Shown here: positions 15,628 through 62,277 of the stretch, in pieces | Layout: each line of letters begins with the position of its first letter | Numbering within the stretch: position 1 is the first letter of the stretch | Source of the DNA: Escherichia coli | Lineage (GTDB): Bacteria > Pseudomonadota > Gammaproteobacteria > Enterobacterales > Enterobacteriaceae | Length of the DNA: 64,000 nt | Assembly (NCBI GenBank): GCA_025336685.1 | Contig: GCA_025336685.1_4717.1 | Reading direction: 5' to 3' (one strand) | The notes under the pieces: generated by a model | Told to the model about the DNA's origin: nothing | Databases searched by the model: none | Seen by the model: only the letters and a program-made list of their open reading frames with translations | Made by a program: the position numbers and the translations under genes

Positions 15628-15750
15628 GTTAATACTCCAATTAGTTTTTTCGATCGATCAAAAGGATAAAATCAGAAGATTCTTTCTTCATAGGGAAAAC
15701 ACAAGTCGGTTAAGGTTTACTTCTTAAACTCCTTGCGTTCTATCAGTTAG

Positions 15751-15759
15751 GTAATATAG
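15751..15759 (-). promoter_or_regulatory. promoter-like motif GGNCTATATTACC (copy 1)
   Basis: Exact 9-mer CTATATTAC on minus strand with GG two bases upstream, about 125 nt upstream of the 15627 start; same motif recurs at 23736, 40045 and 53165. Confidence 0.35.
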
Positions 15760-15762
15760 ACC

Positions 15763-16560
15763 TCAACTTTTTTCCAATAATGCCGCAACGTTCCGCGCGA
15801 AACGAATAACTTTGTAATTGCGGGTTTGTTTGACATCTTCTCCATCACTATCATCTTCGGACGGATCTTCCCACATGAAGTCTTGTTCGTCCGCTTTCTG
15901 TAAGTAGTGGTATAACTGCACCATGCTGCGTGCGGTTGGAGAGATAGCGCGAAGTTCGTCTAAATCTTCATCGGTAAGCAGAACATGCGGTGAACGCAGT
16001 GGTTCCATTGCCGTATTACACAGCAGACGAATAAGCAGATCGACACACGGAATAACGGAACTTGGTGAGGCGATTTCTGGGTGTAGTGTATAACCCCAGT
16101 ACACGCTGTTAAAATAGGCCAATACCGCAGGTAGTGAAGGATGTTCCATCACACGACCAATTTGCTGTCTTACAATAGATGCACGATCGTTCAGTACATC
16201 GAGAGTAATTTGTTGCGGTTCCATAACAGCGAGTGACATACCGTACGCATCGGCTACGCCAAGGATTTCATGAAGAGCCGAACGCTCTTCTTCTGCGGAT
16301 GTTGTCCCGATCGCTTTACGTCCAGCAAGTTCGATTAGCATCGGTGAAACAGTTTCTTTAACCTCGTTTAAAGAAGCCTGGTAAGCATGTTTGTGAAGGT
16401 ACAGTGTCCACGCTAATGCGCGCTCAGCTGCATGAAGCAGATCGACATAAGACTGTTCTTGATAGCATGGTCCGTACACGCTCACCGCAAGCTTGGTGGC
16501 TTTCTCGGAAGCTTGCATAATAGCATCAGGTGATTTAGGCATATCGCGTTCTTCTTGCAT
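15763..16560 (-). CDS. hypothetical protein (265 aa)
   Basis: ORF track. Confidence 0.5.
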   Translation of the reverse strand: MQEERDMPKSPDAIMQASEKATKLAVSVYGPCYQEQSYVDLLHAAERALAWTLYLHKHAYQASLNEVKETVSPMLIELAGRKAIGTTSAEEERSALHEILGVADAYGMSLAVMEPQQITLDVLNDRASIVRQQIGRVMEHPSLPAVLAYFNSVYWGYTLHPEIASPSSVIPCVDLLIRLLCNTAMEPLRSPHVLLTDEDLDELRAISPTARSMVQLYHYLQKADEQDFMWEDPSEDDSDGEDVKQTRNYKVIRFARNVAALLEKS

Positions 16561-17651: not shown

Positions 17652-17729
17652 AACCCCTTTATAAGCAACTGAATGAAAAACGTTACCTTCCCGCTTTTTA
17701 TATCAAGAAGGCGACACGTAAGCGTTATA

Positions 17730-18461
17730 TCACCATTCATACGATCCGGCGCACTGATGTCCCAACAGCACCAATGCGTCGTCTTTGGCGGCCAGGTATT
17801 TTTCTAACGTTATCCGTGAAACAGACACATTGGAGAAATCCATCACACCTAAGCGATGATCGTAATGGTTAATTTGCATCCGGTAATAACCTTTCTTTAC
17901 CACCAAAAACTCACCCTGACGCAACCATAACGGAACGTTGTCCACCTCCGCATGGATATAAAACACCGGACATTCTGTCGTAACGGAGTTTTCCTTCCCA
18001 TCACTATCCGTGATCTTCCCTTTGGGAACAGCCGCGATAAAACATTCTCCGATACGTTCGGTTTGATACCCGTTGGGATAGCGTGGATCGTGAAATAGCC
18101 AATGCTCATCGCTGATATCAACATCGGATAACAGCGTACGATGTGGACGTAAGGCGATGTCAAACGGAACACGATAGATAATGTACCCGCCTAACCAATG
18201 CGCTAAGTGACCACCGGAATAATACTGCTTGATTGCGGTACTGTAACCGTATACACAACCCATCAAACTGCTGGATACACAGATCCTTGGAAACGATCCA
18301 TCCTCCATACGCAAGGTACGTTGAGGAATACGCGGCATCATCGTTTTCAGTTCGGTATCGGTGCTAATATGCAATAAACCGAAAGGAAGCGTTTTACTCG
18401 GGACCCACGCGCAACGTTCCATAATCGCTCTTGGGACAATAGTCTCGATAGACGATAACAT
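17730..18461 (-). CDS. hypothetical protein (243 aa)
   Basis: ORF track. Confidence 0.5.
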   Translation of the reverse strand: MLSSIETIVPRAIMERCAWVPSKTLPFGLLHISTDTELKTMMPRIPQRTLRMEDGSFPRICVSSSLMGCVYGYSTAIKQYYSGGHLAHWLGGYIIYRVPFDIALRPHRTLLSDVDISDEHWLFHDPRYPNGYQTERIGECFIAAVPKGKITDSDGKENSVTTECPVFYIHAEVDNVPLWLRQGEFLVVKKGYYRMQINHYDHRLGVMDFSNVSVSRITLEKYLAAKDDALVLLGHQCAGSYEW

Positions 18462-23695: not shown

Positions 23696-23735
23696 TGACT
23701 ATATTCCTCTTGTGCAGTGATATTAACTACACTTT

Positions 23736-23744
23736 CGTAATATA
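23736..23744 (-). promoter_or_regulatory. promoter-like motif GGNCTATATTACC (copy 2)
   Basis: Exact CTATATTAC on minus strand about 40 nt upstream of the HNH ATG, in the 75-nt gap after the 1069 aa ORF. Confidence 0.35.
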
Positions 23745-23770
23745 GCCTTAATTCTGTTTACATTGAAGCC

Positions 23771-39953: not shown

Positions 39954-40044
39954 GGCATCACCTATGTATCATTCTTGCAGGCATCAATGAAACCATCACA
40001 AGAAGGTAACGTTATACGTCGCCTCCATGACAGTCATCATGAAG

Positions 40045-40053
40045 GTAATATAG
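40045..40053 (-). promoter_or_regulatory. promoter-like motif GGNCTATATTACC (copy 3)
   Basis: Exact CTATATTAC on minus strand upstream of the 39953 start. Confidence 0.3.
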
Positions 40054-40086
40054 TCCTGTTATTTTTTTCAATACGGAGAATGTAAA

Positions 40087-46537: not shown

Positions 46538-47980
46538 TCAGACTCGCGATATGTTACCGCGTACGCTTTCGTTTCCGGCGATGCTAAATAGCTCAAGTTC
46601 AGACGTTGAGGCAGGTCTAACCCTACGACATGGTACAAGACGTAACACCCTGCTTATCGGGGTCAGTCTGTAATTCACGTCCACCTTCAAGCTTTTCGTA
46701 ACCTGCGTAATCGCACTATGCACTTTGGTAACCGTTTTACCTTTCTTATCCTTTTCTGTTTCGAAAAGAACGTCGGTAATTTCGGTTACGACCAGACGCG
46801 GTGTGGATTCGCGGTTAGCGTCAAGCCATTCATCCAGTAACGTCTTTAAGAAGTTCAAGGAATCAATCGCACGCCAAGCAAGGTTAGGCGGATTGCATGC
46901 TTCCATTAAAATGGCTGTGTTCGATCCACCTAGCGGAAGATGCACGCTCTTACCGAGGCCTGTCGGACGCATCGTAAGATCGCACTCACCCTCAAGAATA
47001 TCGCGATGATGTTGACGATGATGAAGGTTATCCGTGTATGCGATATACACTGACTCCGTTGTCCCATGCTCTAATACCCGAGATGCATGCGTACGCATAA
47101 TCTCAATAGCATCATCCGGCTTGCTTAAATAGATAACACTGTACGCGCTATCGCTAATCCTTTTCCCTAACTCAAGACGTCCCTTGTTGTCTTTATCGGT
47201 GTTACCACCGAAATAGATGTAGCGACCATCTTTCGCACGCTCTTGCTGCTGATTGGTGGTAAAGTAGCAGCGCGAGAACGTAAAGAACGGACTTATTTCC
47301 GGTTCGGGACTCCAATACCCCTTAGCCGGAAGTTCGCGACGTATTTGGGTTCTTACAGCCCAGTCCTGGTTTTGTGATAGATATGTTCCACGCGTTGCCA
47401 ACATATCCGCACGTTCGTTACCAACATTGCCCTCATGTCCAGGAACGTAACGCAGCGAAATATCGATAGCGTCGCGCTTCGCATCCCTTATCGCACTATC
47501 GAGTTTCCGCCACCGTTCCGCATTCATTAACGGTTTATTGTCGGATTTAACCCAGTTGTTCTCTCGCCAGTTAGCAAGATGGTTGGTGGCACCTACAACA
47601 ACATATTGGCTGTCCGACAACAGCTGGATCCGTTTTGCCCCCTTTGCTTTTCCAAGTTCAATCGCACGTATTGCAGCATCCAACTCAGCCTGATTGTTCG
47701 TTACGTTGAAACCCAAAGCCTCTAACTCATCCACGTATTCCTTGGGTTCGACCAGCACAGCGTCTTTAGGAAAGTTGAGTTTAGGGTCAACATAACCGTA
47801 TTGTGTTGGTTTGGGCTTTCCACTTTTTGAAGGTTCCAAGGTGCCTTTTATTTCTTTCACCATATCGTAGGTGTAGCCATGCACGCCATAGCCACCATAC
47901 CCACTCGATGTTGGACGGGATCCTCCATCACAGTAGAAAACGGCACCAAGCTCAGTATTTCCTGCCATTGTAAACCTCAT
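46538..47980 (-). CDS. RNase H domain protein with about 290 aa C-terminal extension
   Basis: N-terminal residues match the RNase HI catalytic layout: YCDGGS (Asp), NNQAELDAAIRA (Glu), LSDSQYVV (Asp), NWRENNW, PGHEGNVGNERAD (His/Asp). Confidence 0.8.
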   Translation of the reverse strand: MRFTMAGNTELGAVFYCDGGSRPTSSGYGGYGVHGYTYDMVKEIKGTLEPSKSGKPKPTQYGYVDPKLNFPKDAVLVEPKEYVDELEALGFNVTNNQAELDAAIRAIELGKAKGAKRIQLLSDSQYVVVGATNHLANWRENNWVKSDNKPLMNAERWRKLDSAIRDAKRDAIDISLRYVPGHEGNVGNERADMLATRGTYLSQNQDWAVRTQIRRELPAKGYWSPEPEISPFFTFSRCYFTTNQQQERAKDGRYIYFGGNTDKDNKGRLELGKRISDSAYSVIYLSKPDDAIEIMRTHASRVLEHGTTESVYIAYTDNLHHRQHHRDILEGECDLTMRPTGLGKSVHLPLGGSNTAILMEACNPPNLAWRAIDSLNFLKTLLDEWLDANRESTPRLVVTEITDVLFETEKDKKGKTVTKVHSAITQVTKSLKVDVNYRLTPISRVLRLVPCRRVRPASTSELELFSIAGNESVRGNISRV

Positions 47981-48018
47981 TAATCATTGTCCGTATGATA
48001 GCCCAAAGTTGTACGGTA

Positions 48019-48570
48019 TTACCGATTACCGTCAGTTGACGTTGGTTGATTGCGATCGATTTTCATTGACCGTAATTTTCCACCATTAGTTACACACTGA
48101 TTGCGCTGTTCGACGGAGGCCAGACTGTTACAGACATAATAAGTATCGATAAAACGCTCAACGCGTTCTTGAAACTTCCTCCTGGCAACTTGCTCTTTTT
48201 CAAAAGTTTGTAACGCGCGATCGACCTCACCTTGGAGAATCCGGTTCTGTTCAACCATACTGTCGATTAAACGGCCTCGCACTTCGTTCGATGTGTAGAG
48301 TTGATGAATCAGTTCTCGGTTGGTGTCTCGCGCATAGCGCAATGTTGTATTTTCCTGACGTAAACTATTCGCCTCAGCCATCAAGGTAAAGATTTTTTCG
48401 CCAGCAAATAACGTCACGATACCCAGCACGATGAAAAAACCCGTAATCAAGAATATCGAGGACTGTCGAGCTCCATCTCGACGATAGCGTGTGGGTGGTC
48501 GCTTACTTCGCCGAAACAACTCGCGAAGAAAAGGGAAAAGCCAGGGCAACGCCTTGAGTGTAGTAAACAT
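48019..48570 (-). CDS. membrane protein with N-terminal TM helix and coiled-coil region
   Basis: ORF track extends to 48861, overlapping plus ORF 48589..49965; internal Met at 48570 gives a protein with TM segment IFLITGFFIVLGIVTLFAG then heptad-like helical sequence. Confidence 0.4.
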   Translation of the reverse strand: MFTTLKALPWLFPFLRELFRRSKRPPTRYRRDGARQSSIFLITGFFIVLGIVTLFAGEKIFTLMAEANSLRQENTTLRYARDTNRELIHQLYTSNEVRGRLIDSMVEQNRILQGEVDRALQTFEKEQVARRKFQERVERFIDTYYVCNSLASVEQRNQCVTNGGKLRSMKIDRNQPTSTDGNR

Positions 48571-48588
48571 GCGTGTGTCCTTGATAGT

Positions 48589-49965
48589 ATGAAATTTCCA
48601 ATACAACTTAACCGAGGACGTCGAATGATTAGTATTTTTGGTTTTTATACGTACAAAGGGTACGCTAATAACCACCCAAAAACCACGGCGAAATTCGGTG
48701 AGTTCAGCCAGCATAGTGCTACGTTCAGTCGCGAGATCGGCATCTATACCAACACGGCGTACGCACGTACGACCCTGCTGGTATTGAATGCAGAAAACGA
48801 AGCTGGTGAAGCACAAACGCTGGATGACAACACCGCAAATCAGATTCTTCAGGTTGGTCAATGGTTGCTGGAAAAAGCCTCATCGGGCGAAATCCAGGAT
48901 GACAGAGACCAGGTTATCAGCTACCTAAAAGACGACTTCACAACGTATTTGGATTCTATCGACATCCCGACACCCACCACCGATGGGAAAGTCTATCTAC
49001 CGGCGTGGATCAGTTTCAAGATAACCGCCACGGGTGATGTTGTCAAGATATGGCTGTCTGATAGCGTATTCCAAAGTCAATATCCAAAATACGAATATGA
49101 AGTCGTTCCTCCTGTTCCTAAGGATCAGTTAGACACCTTCTTCGAAGATCTGGCAACGTTGAAGAAACTGGTTGACAGTCGAAGCAGCGAGAAACTGACC
49201 GAAGAAATCAACGAGGTGCGCGACCAATTCCCAGACACACAATTGTGGACGAAAACCTATAAAGCGTACGATTACACCGACGATTCGAAGTACATTGATA
49301 CCGATTGGACGGTGATTATCTACGGTGCAGCAGGTAACAATATTGATAATATCAAGGAGTTCCTGCAAAACTGGATTCTTAGCAATAGTACGCATGGACG
49401 CCCAGACTGGGAAATCGTTCTGCCTGATCTTTTTATTCCGACAGAACACATCTTCATCCCAATCTGGAACCGCCACAGCGCTCCGGAGATGACCAATCAG
49501 GCACGTATTTATAGCCCCATCTTCGATGATTCGTTGATGGATACCTACCTGAAAAACTTTGCTGATGGTTACGGTGAAACCGCCGAAGTCCGTAAATCGC
49601 TTCAAGCGGTGCCGACGCTGTGGCGTTCGATCGGTTTCTTAAGTGTTGGTAACTCACGTAACCGTGATGGTAAACTTAAGTTCTACGATCGTTGGCCGCA
49701 ATACGCACTCATCAGCACAACCAGCATCGATATTAACCGTATCGACGACGCGACACGTGAATTCATCACGTTCACTTACGAGATGCTGAAACTGGCGGAA
49801 TCGCTCACTGAAGACGACCCGGTACCGTTGGGTTATAGTCGTGTTACGCGTGGTAGCAATAACTTCTTAGCGAAAAGCCACAACGATGTTCAGTATCTCT
49901 TCTTAACAAAAGAAGCGTTCCTGAAGAAAATGCCGGATGAAGCCGACACACCTGTTGGAGGTTGA
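48589..49965 (+). CDS. hypothetical protein (458 aa)
   Basis: ORF track; 4-nt ATGA overlap with downstream 49962..50594. Confidence 0.55.
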   Translation: MKFPIQLNRGRRMISIFGFYTYKGYANNHPKTTAKFGEFSQHSATFSREIGIYTNTAYARTTLLVLNAENEAGEAQTLDDNTANQILQVGQWLLEKASSGEIQDDRDQVISYLKDDFTTYLDSIDIPTPTTDGKVYLPAWISFKITATGDVVKIWLSDSVFQSQYPKYEYEVVPPVPKDQLDTFFEDLATLKKLVDSRSSEKLTEEINEVRDQFPDTQLWTKTYKAYDYTDDSKYIDTDWTVIIYGAAGNNIDNIKEFLQNWILSNSTHGRPDWEIVLPDLFIPTEHIFIPIWNRHSAPEMTNQARIYSPIFDDSLMDTYLKNFADGYGETAEVRKSLQAVPTLWRSIGFLSVGNSRNRDGKLKFYDRWPQYALISTTSIDINRIDDATREFITFTYEMLKLAESLTEDDPVPLGYSRVTRGSNNFLAKSHNDVQYLFLTKEAFLKKMPDEADTPVGG

Positions 49966-50594
49966 TTATGGCTGTAACACGCATGACGCCAAGTCCCGGT
50001 GCGGTCGGGGTATTCACAGTATCCGCGCCGTTCACCGTTGGTGCGTCAACGCTTTATACCGTCACAGCGTTGCGTAGATTCAGTGAAGTTATTGGTAGCG
50101 GAATCGATCTATTTAAGGAACTGTACGAACCGTTATCGATAGACAAATCCACATTCGATGCGCATCTCGAAGCGAATGCTTATCTCGTTACGCTGCAACC
50201 GGATTACGGTGCGCCCGTACTGGTACCTGATACGTATATCACGTCGTACCCAAAGAACGATTCGTTGCGGTATCGTCGCATTATTCTGGGTATCGATTTC
50301 GGGCCTCTTCCTCCAGGTCTTGACCTTTCGTATTTAACAACGATATTGAAAGGTAAGGCCAGTGATATTCTTGGTGTCGAACCTGAAGTTAAAATAATGG
50401 AAATCACTCTCGATGATACCGTTACTCAGGAACAACATCAGATAAACGAAGCCCGTCGTCAGGCTGCGATAAAAGAGCGAGATACCATTTACGCGCGCTG
50501 TGAAACGCAAGAGAAGCAGATAACAGCTTTACTTGCAACCCAAAAGCAACTTATCAAATTGCTTCAGGACGCCGGAATCAATCCAACACCTTAA
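49962..50594 (+). CDS. hypothetical protein (210 aa)
   Basis: ORF track; followed by hairpin terminator. Confidence 0.5.
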   Translation: MIMAVTRMTPSPGAVGVFTVSAPFTVGASTLYTVTALRRFSEVIGSGIDLFKELYEPLSIDKSTFDAHLEANAYLVTLQPDYGAPVLVPDTYITSYPKNDSLRYRRIILGIDFGPLPPGLDLSYLTTILKGKASDILGVEPEVKIMEITLDDTVTQEQHQINEARRQAAIKERDTIYARCETQEKQITALLATQKQLIKLLQDAGINPTP

Positions 50595-50600
50595 CATATT

Positions 50601-50640
50601 CCCTCCTCCTTCCCATGTTGGGTTGGAGGAGGGTTATGCC
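50601..50640 (+). terminator. hairpin (CCCTCCTCC / GGAGGAGGG, loop TTCCCATGTTGGGTT) after plus gene
   Basis: Read directly; paralog of 37741..37772. Confidence 0.5.
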
Positions 50641-50647
50641 GTCAAGC

Positions 50648-50695
50648 AAAAAAAAAAAAAATGATAGCCACGGACCCTCCAATGAAGGAGGGTCG
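50648..50695 (-). terminator. intrinsic terminator for minus strand (hairpin GACCCTCC / GGAGGGTC followed by T14)
   Basis: A14 run at 50648..50661 on plus strand is a T14 on the minus strand directly 3' of the hairpin, downstream of gene 50707..51411. Confidence 0.7.
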
Positions 50696-50706
50696 TGACC
50701 GTCAGT

Positions 50707-51411
50707 TTAGGATGTAGATAATCTCGCGTACTTCTGGCGAACATGGTTCTTACGGCGAACTTCGTCATCCTCGTCACGCCATTCGAGGTAAGCAACGAAT
50801 CGACGTAACTGTGCTGCTGTCATCGTTGACGATCGGTCTTCTACATCTAGAACGACGTAACGAACGCCACCAACATCATCGCAATCAACGTAATTGAATA
50901 CCATAAGGCCATCACCGTATTCAACGACGGTAACTTCGAACCGTTTCTCGAACAAATAAAACAGTTCCGATTCGATGATCATCGGAATGACGCATATTTC
51001 AGCACGATCGAGGATTTCCATCATCACCCGTAACGCGCGAGGAGTATGGCGAGCGAACTGGCCGTTAAAACGTTGTCTCATTGCTTGTTCCACGCCATCT
51101 GTTTTTGTTCCAAACCAAGGACGTATTACAGATTTCGGTGGTGTAAGACGAAAGCGATATGCTTGTATAAACAACAGAATATCAGCGACGTTAGGAAATT
51201 CTTCCTGGTCTTCGTATATCTTGCGGATAATATCCGGAATCGTAACCATCAAGTATTTCTTATCGCCTCCCACTTTCTCGAGATTAGCAATATGTCCTTC
51301 TACTACCGGCTGGTAAACGAAATTATACCAATGACGGTATCTTGCAGCACGCTGGTAATTCGGGATAAAATTAAGAACAACATTCACTGCACGTTTTAAC
51401 GGGTTCATCAA
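50707..51411 (-). CDS. hypothetical protein (234 aa)
   Basis: ORF track. Confidence 0.5.
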   Translation of the reverse strand: MMNPLKRAVNVVLNFIPNYQRAARYRHWYNFVYQPVVEGHIANLEKVGGDKKYLMVTIPDIIRKIYEDQEEFPNVADILLFIQAYRFRLTPPKSVIRPWFGTKTDGVEQAMRQRFNGQFARHTPRALRVMMEILDRAEICVIPMIIESELFYLFEKRFEVTVVEYGDGLMVFNYVDCDDVGGVRYVVLDVEDRSSTMTAAQLRRFVAYLEWRDEDDEVRRKNHVRQKYARLSTS

Positions 51412-51422
51412 AAGGTTCCTTC

Positions 51423-51857
51423 TTATGTTCTAATATGCACATCGTCAATCCCCTCGGTAATCCAGCCGATGGGAAGGACAATCGTTGTTATCGTGTTATG
51501 GGTGTAGGGATTAAGAAAATGGAAATAGTAATTTTTGTTAGACTGTTCAATGCGTAGCTCGAGCTGCGCATCTTCAGGTAACCGTAACCAAGCACCGTAC
51601 AGCTCATTAAACTTACGCTGAATTTTACCCGGGTTCATTGGAACCCTACGACCACGGTGGCGTAGCTGACGTAATGATTCAATCAAACACTCAGAGATAC
51701 CCATTACCGTTCCGTTATCGCTTGCATCAATAACGATGAACTCATGTGACCCGCGACCATGATAGAATCCAGCAACAAGCGCAACGGCGACAACGACAAC
51801 CGTACCGATACCTACGTACCAATAGTAAACGTCCATAACAGCCTCACTTATGCCCAA
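51423..51857 (-). CDS. membrane protein, N-terminal TM helix (144 aa)
   Basis: Hydrophobic segment VGIGTVVVVAVALVAGF near N-terminus. Confidence 0.45.
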   Translation of the reverse strand: MGISEAVMDVYYWYVGIGTVVVVAVALVAGFYHGRGSHEFIVIDASDNGTVMGISECLIESLRQLRHRGRRVPMNPGKIQRKFNELYGAWLRLPEDAQLELRIEQSNKNYYFHFLNPYTHNTITTIVLPIGWITEGIDDVHIRT

Positions 51858-52423
51858 TAGTCGGCGAGCGGTTTCACCTTATTAATGGGTAACTGTACTT
51901 TACCGATGTTCTCTACATCCGCATCAGCGTAGAGAACGATTTTATCGTCGTCTCTTTCCCAACGTATAATAAATCGACCAGGAAGAAGATTACCCTGTTC
52001 AAGAGATGCTGTAACCTGTTGTGTTAAAACAGACAACCAAGCAGGCATCAGTGTTGCAATATCTAAGTCATTTGACCACTCAGCACGTTGCTCCACTGGA
52101 CGCAACATACGTTGGACGGTGCGTTGAACTGTTGCGGTGATATAGCCTTTATCTTCGTCACTGATTGGATCCGGACGAGACACGAAACGTTCAGCAGGCT
52201 TACGGGAAATATGTTCATGTAGTTTGATGAGTGGTGTTGTCATAGTACTCGCTCCATCAGAATGTAATTGGGTAACCCGCAGGGTTGTCTGCATGTTATT
52301 CAGAAGCGCAAAAGCGCCATAAACAACAACGATACCAAGTACAGCCAAAACAGAAATCATTAACGTGTATTGCATTGTCATCTTCCCCTCATACGCATCT
52401 TGAAGATTAGTTAAAAACAACAA
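51848..52423 (-). CDS. membrane protein, N-terminal signal-anchor-like TM helix (191 aa)
   Basis: Hydrophobic segment LMISVLAVLGIVVVYGAFALL; overlaps downstream gene by 10 nt. Confidence 0.45.
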   Translation of the reverse strand: MLFLTNLQDAYEGKMTMQYTLMISVLAVLGIVVVYGAFALLNNMQTTLRVTQLHSDGASTMTTPLIKLHEHISRKPAERFVSRPDPISDEDKGYITATVQRTVQRMLRPVEQRAEWSNDLDIATLMPAWLSVLTQQVTASLEQGNLLPGRFIIRWERDDDKIVLYADADVENIGKVQLPINKVKPLADYWA

Positions 52424-52476
52424 AAGAAAAAACGATATAAAGCAAGGTCCTCTGATATCAGAGGACCTTGGATCAA

Positions 52477-53133
52477 TTAGCTTGCAGCATCTTCATTTGT
52501 ATCAGGTTTGCTTCCCCCTAACAAACCGTCAAACAGACCTGTATGTTTCAGGTAGAAGATAGCGATAGCGCCCATCGCTGCTGCGCTCGTCGCCGTTAAC
52601 GCAACCCCAGCACGATACTGCCATTTACGGTCAGGCTTTTGATCAAGCGCCATACGACGCATGTATTCAGCCTCTGCTTCATTCCGATGAATTTCGGATT
52701 CGGCCAGACGGGCTAAGGTATCGCGGTCAAGGTTATCATAACGTACGTTCATGGAAGTTTCCTCTTGTTTGGAAGTTGATTGCTTAGTGGATTCTTGGTC
52801 AACAGTCGTTTCAGTTGGTTCAAACGGCTGGTTGTTCATTTTCTGATCTTTATTGGTCATGATAGACTCCTTCGATTTTTGAGACGAAATTGATTTAAAC
52901 CATCGTGGATGGCGGTATTCGGTTTTACATGTACAGTTAAGTTTCTCGTGCATGAAAGCGTAAAAACGTTTTGCACCTACACGTAAGGCTTTCAGCATTA
53001 TCCATCCACGAGCACTCAAACGGTGTAGCTGTTGCGGTATGTCGAGTTTCCTAGCCAAGCGAAAGTATCTCTCAATCACTTCGATAGGAAACCATTGTTG
53101 TTCCGCATCGGTGAGACTGAAAGTCTTATCCAT
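52477..53133 (-). CDS. protein with C-terminal TM helix (about 218 aa)
   Basis: ORF track start 53160 is GTG; first ATG at 53133 (MDKTFS...); C-terminal hydrophobic segment AGVALTATSAAAMGAIAIFYL. Confidence 0.45.
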   Translation of the reverse strand: MDKTFSLTDAEQQWFPIEVIERYFRLARKLDIPQQLHRLSARGWIMLKALRVGAKRFYAFMHEKLNCTCKTEYRHPRWFKSISSQKSKESIMTNKDQKMNNQPFEPTETTVDQESTKQSTSKQEETSMNVRYDNLDRDTLARLAESEIHRNEAEAEYMRRMALDQKPDRKWQYRAGVALTATSAAAMGAIAIFYLKHTGLFDGLLGGSKPDTNEDAAS

Positions 53134-53164
53134 GATTGAAATCTCGCTGGCTTGCTTCACCTAG

Positions 53165-53173
53165 GTAATATAG
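53165..53173 (-). promoter_or_regulatory. promoter-like motif GGNCTATATTACC (copy 4)
   Basis: Exact CTATATTAC on minus strand about 35 nt upstream of the 53133 ATG, in a divergent intergenic region. Confidence 0.3.
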
Positions 53174-53282
53174 CCGTGAAAAAAGTTGGATTAAGTTAAA
53201 TACCGCAACCTAACTAATTTTATAGGCCTACAGCCTAAACCAATCATCTTCGAAATCATCATCTACGAAACAGGAACCTATC

Positions 53283-54104
53283 ATGGAAAAAGTATTTGTT
53301 TGTAAGCTGTTTACTAACGGCAATAGCCAACCAATGTATCTGACCGATCCGGTTCTGGGTAATCGGAACAGTACTGTATTCAAAGAAGCTATCGAATACG
53401 CTAAAAATAAAGCCGTGAGAACACTGACGTCCGATGACTGTATCAATGGTATCACGTGGGCAGAGTTATTAGGTGATGCTGTTAGACACTTCGTTCGGGA
53501 TGCAAGAAAACAGGAAATCAGCCTCACGACCATTGTCGTGCGCGAAAACGCAGAAATTTTATCAAACGTTTTAGTTGATTTTAATGACGTTTACGTGTTT
53601 AATCCAGAGAACACTTTTGAACAATACCTTGCCGCCCTGAACAAACAGCTCGGTAAAGATGTTCATCCCGAATTCGCCAAGTTAACGTATCAAGTACTTT
53701 TTGACGACGTCGATCCGAATACGAAGATCAGCACCCGCTTAAACTGCCAGATAAAGAAATACGGATCGGTTCTTGCTACAGCGACACCTACCATCGATGG
53801 CGGTTATGATATCGAATTGGATTCTCCATTAAAAGAACAAGAACCTACTGGGGTTCGGGCAATACATCATACCCTCGTCGTTAAATCCGATGGTTGTGAT
53901 GAACATTACGCTATGACAAACGATGAAAATAATCACCGTTTAAGTCAAGCGATCGGTGTTCTACGTTATACCGAACCAACCACTGTAGACGATTATACTT
54001 CGACAACAACGCACACCACGTGTTTCATTTTCATTTATCCAAATGAAAGTGTGTACATTACTGACTGCTACGGCAACACGGTAGATAGCTTACGTCGTTA
54101 TTAA
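53283..54104 (+). CDS. hypothetical protein (273 aa)
   Basis: ORF track; followed by a textbook terminator. Confidence 0.5.
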   Translation: MEKVFVCKLFTNGNSQPMYLTDPVLGNRNSTVFKEAIEYAKNKAVRTLTSDDCINGITWAELLGDAVRHFVRDARKQEISLTTIVVRENAEILSNVLVDFNDVYVFNPENTFEQYLAALNKQLGKDVHPEFAKLTYQVLFDDVDPNTKISTRLNCQIKKYGSVLATATPTIDGGYDIELDSPLKEQEPTGVRAIHHTLVVKSDGCDEHYAMTNDENNHRLSQAIGVLRYTEPTTVDDYTSTTTHTTCFIFIYPNESVYITDCYGNTVDSLRRY

Positions 54105-61789: not shown

Positions 61790-61841
61790 CCTCCTTCCCC
61801 GGCCTTGGTGGCTAGGGAAGGAGGATTATAGTTTATTTATT
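61790..61841. terminator. bidirectional intrinsic terminator (CCTCCTTCCC / GGGAAGGAGG, loop CGGCCTTGGTGGCTA, then ATTATAGTTTATTTATT)
   Basis: Read directly; near-duplicate of the 14041..14090 element, including the loop and T-rich tail. Confidence 0.75.
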
Positions 61842-62277
61842 AACGCACTGCGTTCTGGATGATTTCTTTTCCGATCTTAACCAAAGCAGGTATCTGCACA
61901 GCGGTTGCGCCTCGATGACGAAACGCGGTCGTTAACGCGGTATCGATACTCACAGCACGTCCGTGGAGACGATCGAAGTAGACTTGCGTGATTGCAGCGG
62001 CGTAATCCTTTCGCTGTTTCTTGGTTTGGTTTAACAGCGCCGCACTATGACTAACGATGAAGTAAGCGATTAAGAAGAACGCCGCCGACCGCGAACCGGG
62101 TAGAAAACCTTGTCGCTTAGGAAGCATCTCACAATCGCGAACAGTATTATCATTCGCGAGCTCATCCATGTCAACACAGCATAATTTTGCATAGGTGTGG
62201 AGATAGTGGGTAAAAGCTGAATTTAACATGTTTCTTTCCTCGATTACAATGAGTTCAATGTATAGCTTAAACGTCAC
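61840..62277 (-). CDS. hypothetical protein (145 aa)
   Basis: ORF track. Confidence 0.45.
   Translation of the reverse strand: MTFKLYIELIVIEERNMLNSAFTHYLHTYAKLCCVDMDELANDNTVRDCEMLPKRQGFLPGSRSAAFFLIAYFIVSHSAALLNQTKKQRKDYAAAITQVYFDRLHGRAVSIDTALTTAFRHRGATAVQIPALVKIGKEIIQNAVR

Follow-up and report, generated by a model that had tools for sequence, protein, structure and literature searches.

We examined four minus-strand genes, called A to D here, in a 64,000-nucleotide stretch of contig GCA_025336685.1_4717.1 (assembly GCA_025336685.1, Escherichia coli), the whole of which is referred to below as the window. The initial annotation of this DNA grouped the four as one cluster of single-pass membrane proteins and proposed a lysis or host-membrane module. 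All four open reading frames (ORFs) were recovered with the boundaries it gave: A at 48019-48570 (183 aa), B at 51423-51836 (137 aa), C at 51848-52375 (175 aa), and D at 52477-53133 (218 aa). Positions 47500-53500 are 95.4% identical (megablast) to Escherichia phage vB_EcoM_Goslar, a nucleus-forming E. coli jumbo phage of the Chimalliviridae; window 47500-50661 corresponds to Goslar 234145-237305, and the window from ~50662 to Goslar position 1 onward. B, C, and D are equivalent to Goslar gp002, gp003, and gp004, and A is the ortholog of RefSeq HOV27_gp189 (GenBank Goslar_00247); all are annotated as hypothetical. The RefSeq and GenBank numberings of Goslar diverge above gene 186, the RNA-seq paper cited below following the former and the core-genome paper the latter.

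D, C, and B form a minus-strand run that ends with a gp001-like gene (50707-51408, minus strand, 233 aa, without a transmembrane [TM] segment). The inclusion of A in the same cluster did not hold. A belongs to a different operon, and gp001 and two plus-strand genes of the virion block lie in between. On one side of A, after a gap of 38 bp, is an RNase H gene; on the other are a divergent virion-protein gene (homologue of phiKZ gp157), across an intergenic region of 54 bp (48571-48624), and a DUF7194 gene.

Membrane segments were called with Kyte-Doolittle averages over 19-residue windows, and orientation was predicted from the positive-inside rule, with no other basis for topology. Each of the four proteins has exactly one strong hydrophobic segment, as first described: residues ~38-56 in A (nt 48403-48459, maximum 2.54), ~5-25 in B (nt 51762-51824, 2.20), ~3-25 in C (nt 52301-52369, 2.66), and ~175-195 in D (nt 52549-52611, 1.80), all on the minus strand. 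Because such segments are rare among window ORFs (6 of 60 in a non-overlapping set, or 7 of ~61 with A, which that selection drops), three consecutive single-TM genes are unlikely to have arisen by chance. Two of the segment-bearing ORFs encode very large proteins in which the segment is internal.

The charge distribution suggests different orientations for these proteins. With seven Lys/Arg in the 15 residues ahead of the TM segment and two after it, A is predicted to be a bitopic inner-membrane protein with its N-terminus in the cytoplasm (N-in/C-out) and a C-terminal part of 127 aa outside the cytoplasm. D has 4-5 Lys/Arg ahead of its segment, 1-2 after it, and then an acidic tail of 23 aa, so that it is predicted to be tail-anchored and N-in/C-out, with a large N-terminal part on the cytoplasmic side and a short tail on the periplasmic side. 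In B and C the TM segment is at the extreme N-terminus with no positive charge ahead of it. Their homologues carry Lys/Arg after the segment (e.g., GKWRY, RFLR), and a B homologue has an acidic residue ahead of it. B and C are accordingly predicted as N-terminal anchors, N-out/C-in, with cytoplasmic domains (~110 aa at the C-terminus of B).

Two of the proteins had been credited with coiled-coil-like periplasmic portions, a description that fits A at most; the long helix of D is N-terminal of the TM segment and would be cytoplasmic by charge. A crude heptad-periodicity test was not significant against shuffled sequence for either protein (in A, 120 of 500 shuffles reached the observed value). 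The C-terminal region of A is poor in Pro and Gly and charged, with weak Pfam matches of coiled-coil type (E 0.004-0.07), and "coiled coil" means no more for A or D than a long, Pro/Gly-poor charged helix.

The suggested lipobox check gave none in B or C: C has no Cys, and the single Cys of B, at residue 50, is well past the TM segment. Strict and relaxed scans of all frames likewise found no lipobox ORF around A or anywhere in the window.

Expression separates the two groups of genes. Armbruster et al. (bioRxiv 10.1101/2023.09.20.558163, Supplementary Table 2) give RNA-seq data for Goslar infections at 30 min, with chimallin knockdown and in a control; the knockdown infection stays at the early vesicle stage (10.1101/2023.09.20.558163). 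The log2 fold change (log2FC) in knockdown was +0.2 to +0.4 for gp001, +0.3 to +0.6 for gp002 (B), +0.3 to +0.5 for gp003 (C), and +1.2 to +1.3 for gp004 (D), all of which are thus early, D resembling the chimallin gene chmA (gp246, +0.7 to +1.1, early). For gp189 (A) it was -6.3 to -6.9, which makes it a nucleus-dependent, late gene. The neighbors of A are also nucleus-dependent, gp190 (RNase H) with -2.8 to -4.0 and gp188 (virion protein) with reads falling from ~1100-1300 to 1-6. Full expression of gp001-gp004 in infections that do not pass the early vesicle stage speaks against D, C, and B being holins or spanins. For the window phage these timing classes are presumed from orthology with Goslar and identity of the promoters. 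As a separate observation, the gp005 equivalent (53283-54104, plus strand), between early D and a late run of RuvC and thymidylate-kinase genes, is nucleus-dependent in Goslar (reads ~400-600 to 1-6), so early and late units alternate within 1 kb around D and gp005.

Upstream of D, the sequence TTTCACGGCTATATTACCTAGGTGA at 53157-53181 (minus strand) has the best position weight matrix score in the window for an early promoter of the virion RNA polymerase (vRNAP) class. Its TATATTAC core is at 53165-53172, and the motif is 32 nt upstream of the D ATG. In Goslar the same motif also precedes chmA and operons holding the non-virion RNA polymerase genes gp175 and gp040/gp039, with a weaker match upstream of another such gene, gp165; about eight further operons carry it, and all these copies share one strand. 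At phiKZ intergenic sites, too, the TATATTAC core occurs behind an A-rich stretch. Published vRNAP early promoters are described as having, near -10, an AT-rich element of ~10 nt that is preceded by a T-rich stretch, and the putative D promoter fits this description. A full-text literature search for TATATTAC returned nothing informative. Elsewhere in the window, further copies of the chimallin-class motif occur in intergenic DNA upstream of genes at 15743-15767, 40037-40061, and, more weakly, 23729-23753 (all minus strand), and four of the five exact TATATTAC matches are intergenic.

D is followed directly by an intrinsic-terminator-like hairpin (52443-52470, minus strand; stem of 12 bp with seven GC pairs, T-rich tail), and the Goslar record annotates the same terminator (1841-1862). 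The unit of promoter, D, and terminator is kept in L014, a metagenomic Goslar-like relative reached through its A homologue, and in a third clade, L022, both of them distant.

The order D-C-B is also kept in L014, at protein identities of 26% (D), 25% (C), and 32% (B), and in L022 a gene for a protein with an N-terminal TM segment again comes after the D homologue. The ordered trio with the cytoplasmic gp001 was found in Goslar-like phages only. An exhaustive profile search of 1.84 billion representatives yielded only about four 50%-identity clusters for the D family, all of them Goslar-like, and a tblastn search of 50,697 phage records with A and D matched Goslar alone. Neither Pfam, PHROGs, nor NCBIfam gave anything usable for A-D or gp001, and the D family had no significant match among the sequences of solved structures.

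All D-family clusters share one plan: a conserved N-terminal domain of ~80 aa (WF...RFSxRG...LHxKL...PRWF), then a disordered linker, a helix, a TM segment near the C-terminus that is rich in Gly and Ala, and an acidic tail that is short. In D itself the linker is rich in Ser, Thr, Gln, and Glu, the helix is long, and the TM segment, rich in Gly, Ala, Ser, and Thr, stands between a basic stretch and the 23-aa acidic tail. C consists of the N-terminal TM segment, a disordered linker, and a small alpha/beta domain, which AlphaFold2 models as two helices, a three-stranded sheet, and one helix (predicted local distance difference test [pLDDT] ~70-91 per 10-residue block from residue 71); this model had no significant fold match in BFVD or PDB. 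The model of D was unusable (pLDDT 39.5) and was not taken to a fold search. Alignments for structure prediction were shallow. B and C were considered as paralogues and rejected (hhalign probability 0.2%).

Some observations concern the surroundings of this run in relatives. In L022 (70-510), a SUKH_5/SUKH_6 domain of immunity-protein type is encoded by the gene that precedes the D homologue. In the Erwinia phage Simmy50, the same locus after DUF7194 holds gp139-gp146 (L009 6500-10066), small proteins with Gly/Ala-rich TM segments that resemble paralogues of one another, along with two proteins anchored by an N-terminal TM segment; this set may be analogous to D, C, and B. In Stratton and a Vibrio phage (pVp-JHP1101), the slot occupied here by gp001-gp004, just past the DUF7194 block, holds an endolysin. 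From these gene contents, the slot looks like a variable membrane and envelope island.

The existence of the genes, their TM segments, the synteny, the conservation of promoter and terminator, and the temporal classes (those of Goslar) come from sequence analysis or published data. It is well supported that there are two units with opposite timing, D-C-B limited to the Goslar clade and the family of A spread across the chimalliviruses. Beyond this, the account we favor, in which we place about as much belief as doubt, is that the two units are unrelated, an early accessory host-membrane module (D-C-B) and a late envelope protein (A), and that no lysis cassette is present. Of the function first proposed, the host-membrane part is thus reasonable; lysis is not for D-C-B, which is early, has predicted cytoplasmic domains, and lacks both a lipobox and an adjacent endolysin.

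In this account, D-C-B and the soluble gp001 would be a lineage-restricted early module, transcribed by the virion RNA polymerase at the stage of the early-infection vesicle, in which D would have its own chimallin-class promoter and its own terminator. The bulk of D, C, and B would lie at the inner membrane on its cytoplasmic side, with a C-terminal tail anchor of Gly/Ala-zipper type in D and N-terminal anchors in B and C, and together the three may be a membrane-tethered platform that alters the host inner membrane soon after injection. Its most likely purpose would be to block secondary infection or to neutralize membrane-acting host defenses, with no triggering of lysis. We propose this because other lytic phages use early membrane proteins restricted to a lineage for such purposes, and wider conservation would be expected of a core process.

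In phage T4, Imm, Sp, RIIA, and RIIB are early membrane proteins that act in superinfection exclusion and in protection against membrane-acting exclusion systems. D, C, and B resemble them in being early, small, accessory, membrane-associated, and lineage-restricted, and differ in having no sequence or fold similarity to them and, in their predicted cytoplasmic orientation, from Sp. A superinfection-exclusion set had been among the initial suggestions; the early timing of D-C-B fits it, but no family match and no significant fold match of C to a known exclusion protein was obtained.

A is built differently. It has a conserved N-terminal amphipathic segment, a basic stretch, the TM segment, and the 127-aa C-terminal domain, predicted to be helical, with two Cys. 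In a collection of 5.8 billion proteins its only relatives were Goslar-like ones and a group 50-65% identical to it. Homologues keep the amphipathic N-terminus (MFxTLKALPWLFPFLRELF), the TM segment, and the membrane-proximal helix; conservation does not extend to the distal part or to the Cys residues, the Cys pair being absent already from the 50-65% identical relatives.

The position of A is much more widely conserved than its sequence. The RNase H, virion-protein, and DUF7194 genes of the locus are the chimallivirus core genes cg47, cg46, and cg45 of the core-genome paper; A is not in that sequence-based core-gene list, its family being too divergent. This slot, flanked by RNase H and the divergent virion gene, was recognized in Goslar, L014, phiKZ, SL2, Simmy50, Stratton, EL, RP31, Vibrio pVp-JHP1101, and Aeromonas D6. 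In all eight other phages in which it was examined it holds a small protein of the same architecture: phiKZ gp156.1, its SL2 homologue, Stratton gp225, Simmy50 gp149, EL ORF170, RP31 ORF060, Vibrio pVp-JHP1101 gp139, and Aeromonas D6 gp058. An alignment of Goslar-type A sequences matched these other slot members with a probability of 91.9% (hhalign, E 7.1e-7) over 103 columns that cover the N-terminal motif, the TM segment, and the helix. The phiKZ gp156.1 family thus shares slot, strand, and architecture (amphipathic motif, TM segment, helical C-terminal arm) with A, although the periplasmic arm of gp156.1 has 36 aa against 127 aa in A.

The start of the divergent gene contains, upstream of A, an A-rich stretch with TACT after it, which together resemble the described phiKZ middle-promoter motif, and the intergenic region between A and the virion gene is nearly identical in the distant relative L014. 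As a promoter for A this motif was not retained: the window holds just two further matches, too few to support it, and one of those precedes a gene.

In four lineages (phiKZ/SL2, Stratton, RP31, and the Vibrio phage), which comprise phiKZ-like phages, Erskinevirus, Ripduovirus, and the one Vibrio phage, the A-family gene is directly followed by a lipoprotein gene (among them phiKZ gp156, Stratton gp226, and RP31 ORF059), with lipoboxes LISGC, LLVGC, LLSGC, and LMGGC, and these lipoproteins are related to one another. This is the gene order of a separated two-component spanin, the i-spanin gene preceding the o-spanin gene. PHROGs 14813 and 15897 are the phiKZ gp156.1/gp156 pair and are uncharacterized. 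In published transposon sequencing of phiKZ, both genes had zero insertions in the central 80% of the ORF. Neither gp156.1 nor gp156 turned up in the literature searched for gp156. The pair (L012 10185-10897) is a second set of inner-membrane protein and lipoprotein in phiKZ beside the validated gp141/gp141.1, and could be a second spanin-like system or something else.

A could then be a genuine i-spanin that is needed for outer-membrane breakage at lysis. It would form the fusion complex across the periplasm either with gp088, a lipoprotein whose gene is ~140 kb distant, or by itself by means of its long C-terminal arm. We consider this unlikely, though it accounts for several of the observations. 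The predicted type II (N-in/C-out) topology, putative helical periplasmic domain, and two periplasmic Cys of A, and its late timing, resemble the two-component spanins of lambda (Rz/Rz1) and phiKZ (gp141/gp141.1), and to this extent the suggestion of spanin-like components fits. Endolysin gp024 (log2FC about -5) and gp088 (-3.6 to -6.0) are late as well, and in Stratton and the Vibrio phage an endolysin lies within ~2-3 kb of the A-family member. The Simmy50 and Vibrio members have weak matches to Rz-like spanin PHROGs; the window copy of A had no significant match to any spanin family. No other spanin pair was detectable in Goslar or in the window.

Against this role, A lacks the partner gene by which two-component spanins are defined. 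The adjacency of two-component spanin genes has been described as invariable (PMC12894885), but no embedded, overlapping, or adjacent lipoprotein ORF exists at A. The window phage, Goslar, and L014 share this lack with EL, D6, and Simmy50 and differ in it from phiKZ. The gene for gp088 (Goslar 97923-98426), the sole convincing lipoprotein in ~218 kb of Goslar and the window, lies among tail-fibre genes; tested as a relative of the lipoprotein partners of the A family, gp088 showed no similarity to them. Moreover, phiKZ has the validated spanin pair gp141/gp141.1 (PMC12894885) in addition to gp156.1/gp156. A homology between the gp156-type lipoproteins and the o-spanin gp141.1, which a stretch resembling PPTANEIINAL had suggested by eye, was rejected, because hhalign aligned the lipobox alone (probability 8%) and found no relation past it. 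The Cys pair is not found in the 50-65% identical relatives, and the conserved cytoplasmic N-terminal motif is an extra segment that is not a spanin feature. B and C are further still from spanins, being early, without a lipobox, and probably facing the cytoplasm.

Because the partner gene is missing, we do not file A as a spanin. In the account we favor, A would be a late inner-membrane protein with a helical periplasmic arm and i-spanin-like mechanics, which may act late at the envelope, taking part in release at the periplasm or outer membrane or serving as a tether there.

Known and candidate lysis genes elsewhere bear on whether D could be a holin. The phiKZ lysis cassette was defined in 2026 (Manohar et al. 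2026, PMC12894885); its holin is gp142, of class IIIB, with the cytoplasmic regulator gp143 (PMC12894885). Two recent chimallivirus reviews name no holin or spanin, and none of the literature searched assigns a holin to Goslar. The annotated Goslar endolysins are gp024 and gp098. By annotation neither maps within the 64 kb of the window or adjoins D-C-B or A, the nearest being gp024, ~15 kb from D; the remark that the window has no endolysin agrees with this annotation, although not every window protein was scanned for lysin domains. Endolysin gp024 (Goslar 17700-18335) is of GH108 type, and no hydrophobic segment was found in it. The late protein gp085 (Goslar 93878-94447; log2FC -3.8 to -5.6) has a cytoplasmic N-terminal domain followed by two TM segments, and is 28% identical over 169 residues (E 1.5e-10) to the protein encoded after RuvC and thymidylate kinase in Serratia phage PCH45, whose position is that of the phiKZ holin gp142. 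By this homology, gp085 is a better holin candidate for Goslar than D. Like gp024, gp085 and gp088 are encoded outside the window.

D might nevertheless be a class IIIB holin like gp142, with C, B, and gp001 as its regulators, membrane-tethered or soluble, like gp143, in a lysis-timing module that lacks an endolysin; to us this is distinctly improbable. The gross topology of D agrees with the description of gp142 (one TM segment, N-in/C-out, between a large N-terminal domain in the cytoplasm and a short tail in the periplasm), as does a TM segment rich in the small residues Gly, Ala, Ser, and Thr behind a basic stretch, and a soluble gene (gp001) is present in the same run. The gene also lies downstream of RuvC and thymidylate kinase on the same strand, as the phiKZ holin follows RuvC and the PCH45 TM protein follows RuvC and thymidylate kinase, and Goslar has had no holin assigned so far. 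Against this, three plus-strand genes split the RuvC-thymidylate kinase run from D. Goslar gp004 is early and monocistronic and has a promoter of chimallin class and a terminator of its own, an arrangement conserved across three clades, whereas endolysin gp024 is late; the nearest mapped transcription starts in phiKZ are upstream of orf139 (a virion-protein gene), orf143, and orf144. No endolysin or spanin gene adjoins D. By BLAST, D had no similarity to gp142 or the PCH45 protein (best E 3.8 over 20 aa), the exhaustive profile search gave Goslar-like relatives only, and no holin matched in Pfam, PHROGs, or NCBIfam. The cytoplasmic part of gp142 has ~80 aa, that of D 174 aa with a disordered linker. 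Finally, the homologue of the PCH45 protein in the holin position is the late gp085.

A holin role has to be weighed for A too, since it could be a late holin like T4 gpT (class III) that frees the soluble endolysin gp024. T4 T has a short cytoplasmic amphipathic N-terminus, one TM segment, and a large periplasmic domain with a disulfide. A resembles it in topology and proportions, is late, and has its amphipathic N-terminal segment and TM segment as the best-conserved parts of its family; gp024, having no hydrophobic segment, would need a holin. However, A has no holin link in Pfam, PHROGs, or NCBIfam, and the phiKZ holin is gp142, not the A-family member gp156.1. The lipoprotein association of the family in other lineages suggests a role spanning the periplasm, and gp085 is an alternative late holin candidate. 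Such a role for A is very unlikely in our judgment.

Least probable of the alternatives, and scarcely to be expected, is that D is a holin-like protein, produced together with chimallin and from a promoter of its class, that inserts from the cytoplasmic side into the membrane of the early phage infection vesicle with the help of the membrane-tethered C and B, again with no lysis role, and either tethers the vesicle to the nascent chimallin shell or opens it for passage of the genome to the nucleus; the mechanism of this transfer has been described as unknown (10.1101/2023.09.20.558163), and other chimalliviruses would then be expected to have non-homologous analogues, of which the small TM proteins that Simmy50 encodes at this locus could be an example.

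Several points weigh against the account of two unrelated units, an early host-membrane module and a late envelope protein. How the proteins lie in the membrane, whether D, C, and B associate physically, and what each of A-D does are all inferred. The charge bias of B and C is weak in the window copies, with one Arg after the TM segment. With a terminator behind D, transcription of C, B, and gp001 requires read-through or a promoter that was not found here. Expression was measured in Goslar, not in this 95% identical relative. The analogy with T4 is loose, since Imm and Sp act from the membrane or periplasm and the trio is predicted to face the cytoplasm. For A, the hhalign score of the family may be inflated by the composition of the TM segment and the charged helix, and the lack of transposon insertions in phiKZ may reflect polarity on the downstream RNase H.

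In chimallivirus biology, lysis and the handling of membranes belong to the most poorly understood areas. The present analysis removes a tempting but wrong lysis annotation from gp002-gp004 and singles out the trio of early anchors, with their predicted cytoplasmic orientation, as candidates for a part in membrane or vesicle biology early in infection, in exclusion, or in anti-defense. It also describes the A family as spanin-like, at a fixed position in many chimalliviruses, distinct from the validated phiKZ spanins and missed by the core-gene list, and points to gp085, gp024, and gp088 as lysis candidates in Goslar.

Some further observations were made on lysis-related and small membrane genes. 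In PCH45 (L021 22175-24743) the order is RuvC, thymidylate kinase, a 167-aa protein (cytoplasmic N-terminal domain and two TM segments), and a 247-aa soluble protein, which echoes the phiKZ order of RuvC, spanins, holin, and regulator; a 178-aa Rz-like protein adjoins on the opposite strand. In Goslar, gp097-gp105 (110157-113716) form an early, envelope-directed operon with a consensus early promoter at Goslar 113782, and encode a SleB-like cell-wall hydrolase with a signal sequence, small proteins with two and four TM segments, and two secreted proteins. The hydrolase gp098 (log2FC about +1, early) and the multi-TM proteins gp100/gp101 were first favored as a late lysis cassette and then rejected, the cluster being early and behind another early promoter.

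The ends of the linear Goslar GenBank record map at ~50661/50662 of the window, which is continuous across both, so these ends are arbitrary; their junction falls between convergent genes, in a region (window ~50595-50706) that contains two GC-rich hairpins and 14 consecutive A. Another small protein with one central hydrophobic segment is encoded at 61840-62277 (minus strand; 145 aa as an ORF, 129 aa as Goslar gp014), and Goslar gp014 is early, with a log2FC of about +0.9 in the chimallin knockdown.

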